DNA of 62,000 nucleotides, counting the filler. It is 22 parts of 22 records of this genome, joined end to end, with 100 filler letters (N's around TTAATTAATTAA, not from the genome) between each part and the next. Parts side by side here need not be neighbours in the genome. Positions count along the whole stretch, not along the records: positions 56,559 to 58,818 come from SRR16133337_79708; positions 58,919 to 62,000 come from SRR16133337_79743; 20 more parts are not named here. The stretch is one strand, 5' to 3'. The notes beneath the pieces are model-generated. The model was not told the DNA's origin. It searched no databases and worked only from the letters and a program-made list of their open reading frames with translations. A program made the position numbers and the translations under genes. Below, piece by piece: positions 7,993 through 62,000 of the stretch (position 1 is the stretch's first letter; each line of letters begins with the position of its first letter).

Positions 7993-8213
7993 NNNNNNNN
8001 NNNNNNNNNNNNNNNNNNNNNNNNNNNNNNNNNNNNTTAATTAATTAANNNNNNNNNNNNNNNNNNNNNNNNNNNNNNNNNNNNNNNNNNNNATGACAAA
8101 AAAACGGTTTCACCGCATCACCACAATCACAAAACACTATTTAGAATCTATATAAATAACAAGCAAAACCTATATAAAACGTTCTATTTGCAATATAGAA
8201 ATTTCAAAATTTT

Positions 8214-16996: not shown

Positions 16997-17271
16997 TGAT
17001 GAGCAGGCAAAAAAAGGGTATGTCGGATTTCCTTCCATTATACATTTTGGCAACCACAGGAACTTTGTTGATCCAATTTCTCGTTGAAAAAATTCGGGCT
17101 TCATGAAAAAGTGCTCGCATTTCGTTTAACTTCGTAAGTTTTATAAATTGCAATTTTGTTTTCGTGAAGCCCGAATTTTTTCGACGAGAAATTTGACAAA
17201 CAAAGTTCCTGCGGTTGCCAAAATGTATAACCGAAGGATATTCGACATACAATTTTTTTGCCTGCTCGTCA
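16997..17271. mobile_element. Hairpin MITE with ~110-bp terminal inverted repeats
   Basis: tgatgagcaggcaaaaaaa...cgggcttcatgaaaa vs ttttcgtgaagcccg...tttttttgcctgctcgtca. Confidence 0.8.
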
Positions 17272-58562: not shown

Positions 58563-58939
58563 CTAATAAATCAAAGGCATATGTGCATTTTTTGTGGAGG
58601 TTGGGAGGGCGTGGATTAGGGAGTGGATTGGGGGAATTTTACATGTCTGAAGACTGATCAAGTTTTTCATATTTTTTCACATCTTTAAAAAGGCAAAAGA
58701 CAATTACGAACTAGCACCCCCAGAAACATTTCCGTATTATAATAGAAGAACATAGAAAAGTAGATGCCTAAACACACATGATCGCATAATAAAAATCTTG
58801 TTATCAATACTTAACTCCNNNNNNNNNNNNNNNNNNNNNNNNNNNNNNNNNNNNNNNNNNNNTTAATTAATTAANNNNNNNNNNNNNNNNNNNNNNNNNN
58901 NNNNNNNNNNNNNNNNNNAATAATACCTCGGGAGTGGGG

Positions 58940-58959
58940 TTTATACAATAGTTAGGCAC
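58940..58959 (+). other. Integron-like core site (tttatacaata-GTTAGGC-AC) at the cassette 5' boundary
   Basis: GTTRRRY match 27 nt before the ATG; complementary to GTGCCTAAC-aatgtataaa after the stop. Confidence 0.6.
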
Positions 58960-58977
58960 AAGGCGAAAATAAACCAT

Positions 58978-59886
58978 ATGAATAAAGAAGTTAAATACGA
59001 AAATAGACTTGTTGCCTTTATAGATATTTTAGGTTTTTCAGAAATTGTTAAGCAATCAAAAGATAATAATGATAAAATAAATTTGATTTATTCTGTCCTT
59101 AATTATTTGAAAGATTGGGAAACTTCAGAAAATTGGGATTTAAAGTTAATCGAAATAGAAGAAGATGCTCAAAAAAAAGGAGTTGATAATTTTGATATAA
59201 CTGGAAAGACTAATAGTACTTCATTTTCTGATAGTATTGTTGTTTCCGTAAAAGTTGAAAATAACGTGAATGAAATGACATCTACGTTAATTGCTAATCT
59301 AGCTTATATTGGTGCAATTTTAATCGAACAAGGAATTTTATTTAGAGGCGGTTTAACTATTGGTGATATAATTCATAACGAATTTGGAACGGTTTTCGGA
59401 CAAGGATTAATAGAGGCTTATTTACTTGAAAGTAAATCTGCAAAATATCCTAGAATAATATTATCCGATAAATTAATTAAACAGTTAAATTACCCTCTTG
59501 AGACTAAAGGGAATAGATATCCTTACCATCAATATATAAATAGGTTTGATGATGGCTGTGTTGGAATACATCAAATGAACTACTATCAAGTTGTTCAAAA
59601 CTCTACCGAAATAACTCAAGAAAAACTTACGGAGAGTCTCGATAAGATTAGAAAAGTTATAATTGCTGGACTGGACTTAAGTTTTGAAAAAACTCAAGTG
59701 TATGAAAAATATAAATGGTTAGCGAATCAATACGAAAAGTTAATCATATCAGATGACATAGATTTTAAGACGAAGGAAAAAACAAAATTAAAATTTGAAT
59801 TACACAACATAAAAGGAGCTTACTCGGAACATAATATCCATTTTTCATATATAGATAAATTACACCAAGGATGGAGAGAAAAATAA
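58978..59886 (+). CDS. Stand-alone class III nucleotidyl-cyclase-fold hypothetical protein (cassette gene)
   Basis: AFIDILGFS, FSDSIVV (two putative metal-binding Asp), FRGGLTIGD, VFGQGLIEAYLLE, YPRIILS. Confidence 0.65.
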   Translation: MNKEVKYENRLVAFIDILGFSEIVKQSKDNNDKINLIYSVLNYLKDWETSENWDLKLIEIEEDAQKKGVDNFDITGKTNSTSFSDSIVVSVKVENNVNEMTSTLIANLAYIGAILIEQGILFRGGLTIGDIIHNEFGTVFGQGLIEAYLLESKSAKYPRIILSDKLIKQLNYPLETKGNRYPYHQYINRFDDGCVGIHQMNYYQVVQNSTEITQEKLTESLDKIRKVIIAGLDLSFEKTQVYEKYKWLANQYEKLIISDDIDFKTKEKTKLKFELHNIKGAYSEHNIHFSYIDKLHQGWREK

Positions 59887-59891
59887 ACCCA

Positions 59892-60083
59892 GTGCCTAAC
59901 AATGTATAAAAAACATAGGGCTTTTGTGCTAACTCTAAAGTTCTGTGTTTATTTACAAAGTCCGCTAAATATAAAATTTGGTATTTAAGACAAAAATAAA
60001 AGCAAAATATTTATATTTAGCTAAGTAATAAACCGAAATGTAATGCTTATCCTCTGCCCTACGATCCTTATACTAACCGTAGG
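59892..60083 (+). repeat. Long attC-like imperfect hairpin
   Basis: RYYYAAC (gcctaac) then gtataa...tagggc pairing with gcccta...ttatac; inner perfect 12-bp stem gctaaatataaa (59964-59975) / tttatatttagc (60010-60021). Confidence 0.65.
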
Positions 60084-60134
60084 GTTGTCATAAAAAGAAA
60101 TTAAAGAATCGTATTTTATACTTTCGTAAAAGAC

Positions 60135-61229
60135 ATGAAACCAATAGAAATAGAAAATCAATTCTTAAAAAACCATGCCTTTATTGATTTATTTGCAGGT
60201 ATTGGTGGATTTCATTATGCTTTAAATTCATTTGGTGCCACCTGTGTTTTTGCTTCTGAAATTGACAATAAGGCGTCGGAGATATATCATAGGAATCATG
60301 GGTTAAAACCTAAAGGAGATCTTACACAAATAAACGAAAAAGAGATTCCATCACATGATATACTTTGTGGCGGATTTCCTTGTCAAGCATTTTCTATTGC
60401 GGGAAAACAAAAAGGATTTGAGGATACAAGAGGTACCTTGTTCTTTGAAATTGCTCGAATTGTAAAACATCATAAACCTAAAATTTTATTTCTAGAGAAT
60501 GTAAAAAATTTTGTGCAGCATGATAAGGGAAAAACCCTAAATACGGTTTTAAAAACTTTAGAACAACTCCATTATAAAGTTTTTTACAAAGTGCTGAATA
60601 CAAGTAATTTTGGATTGCCTCAAAACAGAGAAAGAGTGTATATTGTGGCATTTCATACAAAGGATTTCAAACAAATAAATTTCAAATTCCCAACTATAAA
60701 ATTATCCGCATCATTAGAAGATATTTTAGAATCAAATCCTATAAATGGTAAAATAGTTGAAAGAGAGGATATTGAATTTTATAAAAAATTTAAGGCTCAA
60801 AAAAACCTATTTGGAGAAGATGAAATACCTAATAAGCCCATTCAAATTGGTAAAGTAAATAAAGGGGGGCAAGGAGAAAGAATCTACCATCCAAAAGGGC
60901 ATGCAATTACGTTATCTGCTCATGGAGGAGGTATTGGCTCAAAGACAGGATTGTATAAGATTGGAAGGACTGTTAGAAAACTTTCTCCTAGAGAATGTGC
61001 CAGATTACAAGGGTTTCCAGAAAATTTTAGATTTCCGCAAAGTATTTCAGAAGCTCACAAACAATTGGGGAATAGCGTATCCATAAATACCTTACAATAT
61101 ATCATACACGAAATCATTAAAACGATAAAAAGTAATGAACAAATATCAAGAATTGGGTTCTCAAACAGCGAAAAACGGGTTCAAGAACGAAAAGGATATA
61201 GTCAAGAAATTCAACGATTGGCAAAATGA
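60135..61229 (+). CDS. C5-cytosine DNA methyltransferase, M.HhaI-like (predicted GCGC)
   Basis: FIDLFAGIGG, GFPCQAFS, ENV, QNRERVY; TRD KGGQGERIY...AITLSAHGGG closely resembles M.HhaI. Confidence 0.92.
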   Translation: MKPIEIENQFLKNHAFIDLFAGIGGFHYALNSFGATCVFASEIDNKASEIYHRNHGLKPKGDLTQINEKEIPSHDILCGGFPCQAFSIAGKQKGFEDTRGTLFFEIARIVKHHKPKILFLENVKNFVQHDKGKTLNTVLKTLEQLHYKVFYKVLNTSNFGLPQNRERVYIVAFHTKDFKQINFKFPTIKLSASLEDILESNPINGKIVEREDIEFYKKFKAQKNLFGEDEIPNKPIQIGKVNKGGQGERIYHPKGHAITLSAHGGGIGSKTGLYKIGRTVRKLSPRECARLQGFPENFRFPQSISEAHKQLGNSVSINTLQYIIHEIIKTIKSNEQISRIGFSNSEKRVQERKGYSQEIQRLAK

Positions 61230-61893
61230 TAAAGAAGCTCAAACTTGGTTATTAATCATGGAATATGCCCTTGAGAAAATTGAATCTGTAAAAGCAATGA
61301 TTCTTTCAGGTTATAAAGCAGACATACAGGTTCAAATAACGATAAAACTTAAAGAAGTTATTGATGCTGAAAAGATTCAAGTAAAATTAGTAAGTAGTCG
61401 TAAAGGGTTCAATCAGATTGACAAGAGATGGGTTGACAAATATGTTGAAATCTGGGAAATACCCAATCAAATAAAAAACCTATTGAAAGAATATACAGGA
61501 GAATTAGCACCAAGAATTGATAACCCAAAAGACCCAAGAAGAACTTTTGCTAACGAGTTCAGTACAAAAGACCAAAGTGTTTTATTAAATTGGCTTTCAA
61601 AGAACAAATCATTAATCGTTAGCGATATTTTAAAAGGAAGAGGCAAGCTCTCCGCTGAATGGATGTTAGTAGCTCAAAAAGAAGTAAGTTCTGCGAGATG
61701 GATTTTAAAACCAATGAATTATTGTCTAAATTTTTTTGGTAACGGAGAAATTGAAATCACAAAAAGGGGGAATTTAAAAATAGGTAAAATTACGATACAA
61801 AGAAAAGGCGGAGATGGAGGTAGAAAAACGGCTCAGATGTTACAGTTTAAAATAAATCCTGCTGAATTATTTGAAATAAAAAAAGACGAATGA
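61135..61893 (+). CDS. Type II restriction endonuclease, HinP1I family (predicted GCGC)
   Basis: ELGSQTAKNGFKNEKDI, GYKADI, IQVKLVS, GFNQIDK, TIQRKGGDGG, MLQFKINP match R.HinP1I motifs. Confidence 0.88.
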   Translation: MNKYQELGSQTAKNGFKNEKDIVKKFNDWQNDKEAQTWLLIMEYALEKIESVKAMILSGYKADIQVQITIKLKEVIDAEKIQVKLVSSRKGFNQIDKRWVDKYVEIWEIPNQIKNLLKEYTGELAPRIDNPKDPRRTFANEFSTKDQSVLLNWLSKNKSLIVSDILKGRGKLSAEWMLVAQKEVSSARWILKPMNYCLNFFGNGEIEITKRGNLKIGKITIQRKGGDGGRKTAQMLQFKINPAELFEIKKDE

Positions 61894-62000
61894 ATTCCAA
61901 AGACAAGAGTCTAAGGTTAAAATTATAAAAACAAGGTCTTAAGTGAAATGATTTTAGAAGAAAATTAAAATATTTTTAACATTAAGAACCTCAAAACTAA

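Follow-up and report, generated by a model that had tools for sequence, protein, structure and literature searches.

We analysed a stretch of DNA of 62,000 nucleotides (nt), hereafter the window, in which about 22 short contigs are strung together through linkers of the form N44-TTAATTAATTAA-N44, and we describe in it a probable integron-type gene cassette. The contig that carries the cassette begins at position 58919, extends past 62000 and contains three open reading frames (ORFs). The first ORF, at 58978-59886 on the plus strand, encodes a protein of 302 amino acids (aa) that is predicted to resemble class III nucleotidyl cyclases, and it is followed by a candidate attC recombination site; the other two are a restriction-modification (R-M) pair.

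The first ORF is framed by two complementary boxes, both on the plus strand. The box GTTAGGCAC, with the R' core GTTAGGC(AC), occupies 58951-58959 and starts 27 nt ahead of the ATG (58978), and the R'' box GTGCCTAAC, the exact complement of this cassette start, follows at 59892-59900, 5 nt past the stop codon (59884-59886). The cassette begins after G58951. An earlier reading of this DNA, made without database searches (the sequence-only reading), had placed these two boxes around a single ORF, and its coordinates were exact; the longer box match that it drew is real (12 nt at 92% in a repeat search) but requires a 1-nt indel. Both GCCTAAC (59894) and GTTAGGC (58951) match the core consensus RYYYAAC / GTTRRRY. 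Each exact 9-mer occurs once in the window, and allowing up to one mismatch gave 7 matches against 6.0 expected, so that the motif alone is not above chance. Ahead of the cassette, positions 58919-58950 (plus strand) resemble the 3' ends of attC sites in relatives, L'-like TTATAC (58941-58946) included, suggesting that they are the 3' end of a preceding attC site truncated where the contig begins.

Scanning one genome per species, we found 51 loci with a relative of the ORF. We compared the boxes of the window with those of 33 related loci in which the gene ends could be placed, leaving out 18 distant or truncated loci, and scored the upstream 9-mer starting with GTT against the AAC-ending 9-mer just after the stop. 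Perfect 9/9 pairs were found in 13 of the 34 own pairs, with 11 different sequences, compared with 18 of 1122 mismatched-locus pairings, and all of these 18 came from loci having the same box. These data show that the cassette start is complementary to the start of its own attC site and covaries with it between cassettes. If the unit forms a circle after being cut between G and TT, such exact complementarity would be expected.

Nucleotide homology with the closest relatives is confined to the segment from 58951 or 58952 to 59901-59911, which is the cassette start to the first 10 to 20 nt of the attC site. Over this segment the identity is 85% in loci L001 and L075 and 84% in L070 and L071, and in L001 the homology spans 58951-59911 only. 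The attC site after the homologous ORF measures about 132 nt in L001, L075 and L070 and about 62 nt in L071, as against 192 nt in the window. L071, a metagenome copy, also differs in its upstream core, which reads ATTAGGCAC with a G to A change (L071:2976-3000).

The attC site and its family

The candidate attC site of the window covers 59894-60085 (192 nt), the minus (bottom) strand being the one modelled to fold, and it aligns at both ends with a site in another locus (L008:2196-2391). Its L'' box and the 5' arm of its stem (59904-59921) pair with the 3' arm at 60056-60073, which ends in the L' box (TTATAC, 60068-60073); the two outer arms match over 18 nt at 78%. Between them lies an inner hairpin, AGCTAAA...TTTAGCGG (59964-60021), recognised as an inverted repeat and by comparison with other long sites, in which a perfect 12-bp stem (59964-59975 with 60010-60021, 100%) encloses a 34-nt loop. 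The degenerate downstream end noticed in the sequence-only reading is an R' box GTAGGGT at 60079-60085 (plus strand), with GTA where relatives have GTT (GTTRRRY). That reading had described one imperfect hairpin of about 190 nt; the outer arms and the perfect inner stem that it named do exist, but the structure is branched and its minimum-energy fold consists of three local hairpins. Both strands fold in this way, the top strand at -23.2 kcal/mol (z -3.4) and the bottom strand at -18.8 kcal/mol (z -1.8). With the outer stem forced on the bottom strand, 17 of 18 pairs are standard, three of them G.T. The bottom strand had also been suggested as the place to look for extrahelical bases: no bulged G or T was assigned, and what was observed is an asymmetric spacer (5 nt versus 1 nt) together with G.T pairs conserved on the bottom strand.

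We then built covariance models of the related attC sites. For the short-class model we used the bottom strands of 24 sites, each about 132 nt long, taken from 12 loci. Sites of this class have a 5-bp R box, the 5-nt versus 1-nt spacer and a 19-bp stem. In the 24-site alignment 91.6% of cells were paired, compared with 66.3% in shuffles (none of 500 reached the observed value) and 33-51% with slid partners, and compensatory change was seen in 18 of 24 pairs, indicating that the imperfect hairpin is kept by compensation in the family. At alignment columns 8/131 and 26/117 (alignment A2) a bottom-strand G.T wobble stands in 23 and 21 of the 24 sites, respectively. Conserved bottom-strand G.T pairs are C-A mismatches on the top strand, and this is a possible means of strand choice. 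At E<=0.01 the short-class model found 75 sites, of which 74 have the same orientation as the gene; they belong to 18 of the 51 loci, and the loci of distant homologs yielded none.

Sites as long as that of the window form a class of their own within the family. The 192 nt lie beyond the attC length of 55-141 nt quoted in one source (PMC7370490), and in this respect the site was rightly called unusually long; among matches to the short-class model in the 51 loci and in regions downstream of recombinase genes (see below), however, 16 of 161 are 189-202 nt long. What sets the long class apart is an extra conserved inner hairpin, AGCCAAA...TTTGGCGG, present in 11 to 13 long sites and showing compensatory changes, from which AGCTAAA...TTTAGCGG of the window differs by a compensated change. 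In other respects the 189-202 nt class resembles the class of about 132 nt: it has the R box, the spacer asymmetry and a stem, about 19 bp long, whose G.T pairs favour the bottom strand.

A long-class model was made from 13 long attC sites of other genomes, with the window excluded. It matched 59894-60085 on the minus strand from end to end with 96.1 bits (E 5.4e-19), and this was the only strong match in the 62 kb. Five long sites outside the training set scored 52-130 bits, and 9 control sources gave no match. The first MAFFT alignments of the long sites (A4 and A6) had the outer stem out of register and were not used for models. As for other searches, a strict regular-expression attC finder returned nothing, an Rfam scan of the contig gave chance-level matches only, and a relaxed fold-based finder, which produced 401 matches against 675 in a reversed-sequence control, was used only for picking candidates.

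Copies of the site are numerous in sequencing runs. Segment 59896-60038 occurs in 202 and 303 contigs of two ice metagenome runs (X1 and X3) and in 21 contigs of a marine run (X6), mainly as attC sequence without the gene. Contig depths summed over this segment rise to about 11,500, and the inner part is missing from some of the contigs. The upstream flanks of these copies diverge at 59896-59898, which is the R'' box.

Arrays and a recombinase in related genomes

The same ORF, with the same boundary logic and with different boxes and neighbours, is found in attC arrays of many Bacteroidota and Ignavibacteriota genomes. The largest array among the 51 loci (L028) has 13 attC sites in 8.4 kb. We inspected 51 intervals between attC sites in 8 arrays and found that only the cyclase cassettes were common to several loci, and that the longest ORF was co-oriented in 46 of the 51 intervals.

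No classical integron integrase (IntI) was found in the flanks (6 kb on each side) of the 51 loci. Of 15 related genomes, one gave a score above the cut-off of the IntI model TIGR02249, and this match does not adjoin the arrays. That IntI, in a Melioribacteraceae metagenome-assembled genome (MAG; G002:C1:303410-304300, locus L052), scores 370 bits and has one in-frame TAG; no attC site of the short-class type lies within about 18 kb of it, and a different contig of G002 carries the array that includes the cyclase gene. The best matches below the cut-off were to an Xer-like tyrosine recombinase of 346-381 aa with the Pfam domains Phage_int_SAM_4 and Phage_integrase. Its NCBIfam scores are 208-225 bits for NF040815 and 196-220 bits for TIGR02249, compared with a cut-off of 265, and the insertion seen in the G002 IntI is missing from it, while its N terminus is extended by about 100 aa.

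Of 81 Flavobacteriaceae genomes searched, 15 have a full-length ortholog of this recombinase (at least 53% identity), and the 3' end of the gene frequently lies a few hundred bases away from the end of its contig. We examined the DNA downstream of 12 recombinase genes in 11 genomes, leaving out three genomes with the gene at a contig end. Co-oriented attC sites were found in 12 of 12 regions, with 86 matches in total, and genome G067 has two platforms with 22 and 17 attC sites (about 14 kb). At all 12 junctions (L105-L116) a palindrome of 8-12 bp stands a few bases before GTTR, 40-70 nt after the recombinase stop, suggesting that cassettes may be integrated at what is itself a small hairpin. 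The first cassette of both L067 and L068 starts about 90-110 nt after the recombinase stop, and its boxes are complementary over 9-10 nt. For Bizionia algoritergicola APA-1, an overlap between the 3' end of the recombinase gene and the contig bearing the cyclase cassette makes this cassette the first one there. Arrays are directly downstream and co-oriented in 15 of 18 recombinase loci. A tyrosine recombinase, which the sequence-only reading proposed to look for at an array end, is present in relatives as an Xer-like enzyme upstream of the array and co-oriented with it.

In L068, from a Pedobacter MAG, the protein of the first cassette after the recombinase has 1042 aa and a SIR2_2 domain (E 3e-16) and is a defence-like cargo; the cassette (L068:1076-4204) has the boxes GTTAGCAGC and GCTGCTAAC.

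Readings of the locus

Taken together, the compensatory boxes, the homology bounded by the cassette, the arrays in relatives and the match to an independent long-attC model bear out the proposal, made from the sequence, of an integron-like cassette with a long attC site and an array context. We give a probability of roughly three in four to the reading that 58952-60079 is one integron-type cassette, comprising the cyclase-like ORF and its own attC site, at the far end of an array that has lost its upstream part where the contig breaks. In such a system a tyrosine recombinase would excise the cassette by recombining the folded bottom strands of the flanking attC sites, and the cassette would be reinserted at the hairpin-plus-GTT site just downstream of the recombinase gene. 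The wider set of loci is probably a variant integron lineage, in which recombination is most likely the work of the Xer-like recombinase beside the arrays, which has no IntI insertion, and not of a classical IntI. Excision of the copy in the window is probably difficult, because its right-hand crossover triplet is GTA; a last cassette that is fixed in its array would be expected to behave in this way.

The ends of the contig were compared with those in run X7, which contains this part of the window in full and, being a possible source of it, is not independent evidence. There, a contig of 5225 nt stops upstream at the same position, and downstream it goes on for 2144 nt past the window. Another partial attC copy is found on a second contig of this run, 1473 nt long and of similar depth. 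The contig break inside the upstream attC site fits a repeated element, as had been supposed. The downstream GTA has no variant in this run at a depth of 65. That the cassette is the terminal one is plausible though unproven: neither covariance model found a further attC site in 60086-62000, but the source contig goes on.

Several observations weigh against our reading. The short-class model misses the attC site of the window altogether, even with filters off. Closing the outer stem of the bottom strand costs 3.1 kcal/mol (-15.7 versus -18.8 kcal/mol), and the stem has an ensemble probability of about 3%. The downstream R' reads GTA and not GTT, its third base failing the consensus; in the Infernal alignment to the long-class model the window R' is TAC versus the consensus AAC, and the R-box pairs are marked as non-standard. 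The same ORF has different attC sites across genomes, which simple movement of an ORF with its own attC as a unit fails to explain. Co-oriented cassette arrays are present in the relatives, and the contig of the cassette carries only one complete and one truncated attC site. No recombinase of either kind lies in the 62-kb window, in agreement with the absence of a visible integrase in the sequence-only reading; there is no adjacent IntI with the insertion in the window, and the array-adjacent enzymes elsewhere are below the cut-off and without the insertion. Finally, among the 18 recombinase loci, one paralog (L069, next to polA) has no array and two loci are uninformative (contig ends).

On a broader proposal our judgement is evenly balanced. 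It holds that Bacteroidota, Flavobacteriaceae above all, have their own integron lineage, in which an Xer-like recombinase of about 350-380 aa, with an N-terminal extension and no insertion, lies upstream of the array and is co-oriented with it; cassettes would integrate 40-110 nt past the recombinase stop, at a small palindromic hairpin and the GTT that follows it. The attC sites would come in classes of about 132 and 195 nt, current tools would file the arrays as attC-site clusters that have no integron integrase (CALINs), and the cassette of the window would be a widely travelled one, with 65-95% protein identity across Bacteroidota and Ignavibacteriota.

The alternative that survives best, unlikely in our estimate, is that we are looking at an ordinary CALIN, the remnant of a classical integron whose canonical IntI is elsewhere or lost, and that the Xer-like enzyme is a bystander or marks a favoured insertion spot. 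The R''/R' consensus and the attC architecture are indeed canonical, G002 has a true IntI (370 bits), and Bacteroidota are listed among the phyla with integrons in the parts of two papers bearing on this (PMC8618304, PMC9668308). However, 14 of the 15 genomes have no IntI over the cut-off, although some have contigs of Mb scale bearing arrays of 17-22 attC sites, and in five of five genomes of one search set the best IntI-like match is the array-adjacent recombinase itself. The G002 IntI, with its in-frame TAG, has no such attC site within about 18 kb, and the junctions have the same geometry in 12 of 12 loci.

Less probable still, and by a clear step, is a hijacking of an Xer-type resolvase at a dif-like palindrome by mobile elements, with no dedicated integron platform. 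XerCD is exploited in this way by elements such as the CTX phage. The junction, a short palindrome and then GTT right after an Xer-like gene, would suit this explanation, as would the closeness of the NCBIfam scores (XerA 208-225, XerD 189-206 and IntI 196-220 bits). Against it, full-length orthologs are restricted to 15 of the 81 Flavobacteriaceae genomes searched, and the recombinase is therefore not a housekeeping gene; moreover, the two copies present in one genome are accompanied by an array each. Ordinary intergenic palindromes (a terminator or a repetitive extragenic palindromic-like element) or chance in AT-rich DNA beside a fixed chromosomal gene are very hard to credit, for although there are 106 inverted-repeat pairs in the 1.2-kb region, the 9-mer alone is not above chance and the top strand readily forms local hairpins (z -3.4), this explanation is contradicted by the compensatory boxes, the cassette-bounded homology, the long-class match at E 5e-19 and the variable neighbours.

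Cargo, neighbouring genes and known systems

The 302-aa protein encoded by the cassette has 728 relatives at E<=0.001, with 65-95% identity among the 120 matches listed, and the few relatives with source names are all from Bacteroidota and Ignavibacteriota. It matched no Pfam family at E<=0.1, PF00211 included, no PADLOC family at E<=1 and no informative NCBIfam model, and a search of the PDB sequences with the protein profile gave nothing. Two PHROGs of unknown function match it (best 8e-30), and a protein atlas gave unnamed clusters with a cyclase lead only (0.85). The AlphaFold model has a pLDDT of 93.4 and a pTM of 0.91. A Foldseek search with this model found 92 PDB chains at E<=0.001, the top ones all adenylyl or guanylyl cyclases (best CyaB, 2e-5), with TM scores of 0.5-0.65 on the target. 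Eight residues, D16, S84, D85, R123, G124, G141, E151 and K244, are invariant in 60 sequences; the cyclase homology fold is predicted together with a putative metal-binding pair of invariant Asp residues, D16 and D85, which would be catalytic. The predicted structure suggests that the cargo probably makes a cyclic nucleotide. A role in defence signalling is a guess, made because of the neighbouring R-M pair and of the abstract of a preprint on defence cassettes in chromosomal integrons (10.1101/2024.07.02.601686).

The R-M pair, of the HinP1I-like type II, follows directly after the last attC site at 60135-61893. It consists of a C5 DNA methylase (60135-61229, plus strand; Pfam PF00145, 3e-96) and a HinP1I-like endonuclease (61135-61893, plus strand; PF11463, 3e-84), and by these coordinates the ORFs share 95 nt. 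We did not adopt the pair as a cassette, as there is no complementary box and no attC site for it within the window, and it is not found beside the cyclase cassette in any of the 51 loci or of 6 further related loci. On other contigs of the window, the long-class model gave a weak match at 8129-8187 (18.6 bits, E 0.02), 36 nt from a contig start and ending ...CTATATAAAAC|GTT, which could be a short attC or a junction-like site of the same genome. In addition, a fold-based scan found a near-perfect palindrome of 173 nt at 17048-17220, whose single-stranded DNA has a folding energy of about -59 kcal/mol.

Proteobacteria are the group in which integrons are known best, and the insertion in IntI is held to be essential for integron integrases. 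If the Xer-like enzyme does the work, the IntI-specific domain would not be universally required for recombination of folded attC sites, many so-called CALINs would be complete platforms, and a large untapped pool of cassettes, the defence-like SIR2 protein and the cyclase among them, would come into view. The attC repeats of this pool are abundant in cold and marine metagenomes, and the class of about 195 nt exceeds the size limits of some attC detection pipelines. Part of one survey (PMC9024848) defines a CALIN as at least two attC sites and reports, for complete genomes of Bacteroidetes analysed with IntegronFinder 2.0, only In0 elements and one complete integron, in Salinibacter. In a literature search with most subscription journals and supplements outside its reach, which is not proof that the system is unpublished, we found no description of Flavobacteriaceae or Bacteroidota arrays with such a recombinase.

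The cargo is like class III cyclases (PF00211) in its predicted fold, two invariant Asp residues and an RGG motif, and unlike them in having no Pfam match and an extra helical C-terminal part (about residues 165-302). Pycsar defence cyclases offer a functional analogy, but the cargo has no PADLOC match and is a single-ORF cassette without an effector gene.

As for the cassette itself, it shares with those of classical integrons the RYYYAAC...GTTRRRY boxes, apart from the downstream R', and a start complementary to the start of its own attC site, and the attC sites of the family share the R box, spacer, L box, stem, variable centre and a bottom strand that folds better. The ORFs are mostly single and co-oriented in arrays, as in classical integrons. 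The attC site of the window differs from classical ones in its 192 nt, in the conserved second hairpin in its variable part and in the R' GTA, and the locus differs in having no IntI nearby and, in the lineage, a likely integrase without the IntI insertion. With CALINs it shares attC sites without a detectable IntI nearby, but the contig of the window has one full and one cut attC site, and the arrays of relatives have a conserved recombinase that scores below the cut-off of the IntI model. Long arrays with near-identical attC sites within a host (L028, G067) are also a feature of sedentary chromosomal integrons such as the Vibrio superintegron with its VCR (Vibrio cholerae repeat) elements; here, in contrast, the host phylum is another one, the recombinase is upstream and co-oriented instead of divergent, and there are two length classes of attC. 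In the inverted integrons of Treponema and Chlorobi the integrase is transcribed in the same direction as the cassettes, as is the array-adjacent recombinase here, but their enzymes, unlike the Xer-like recombinase, are true IntI proteins with the extra domain.

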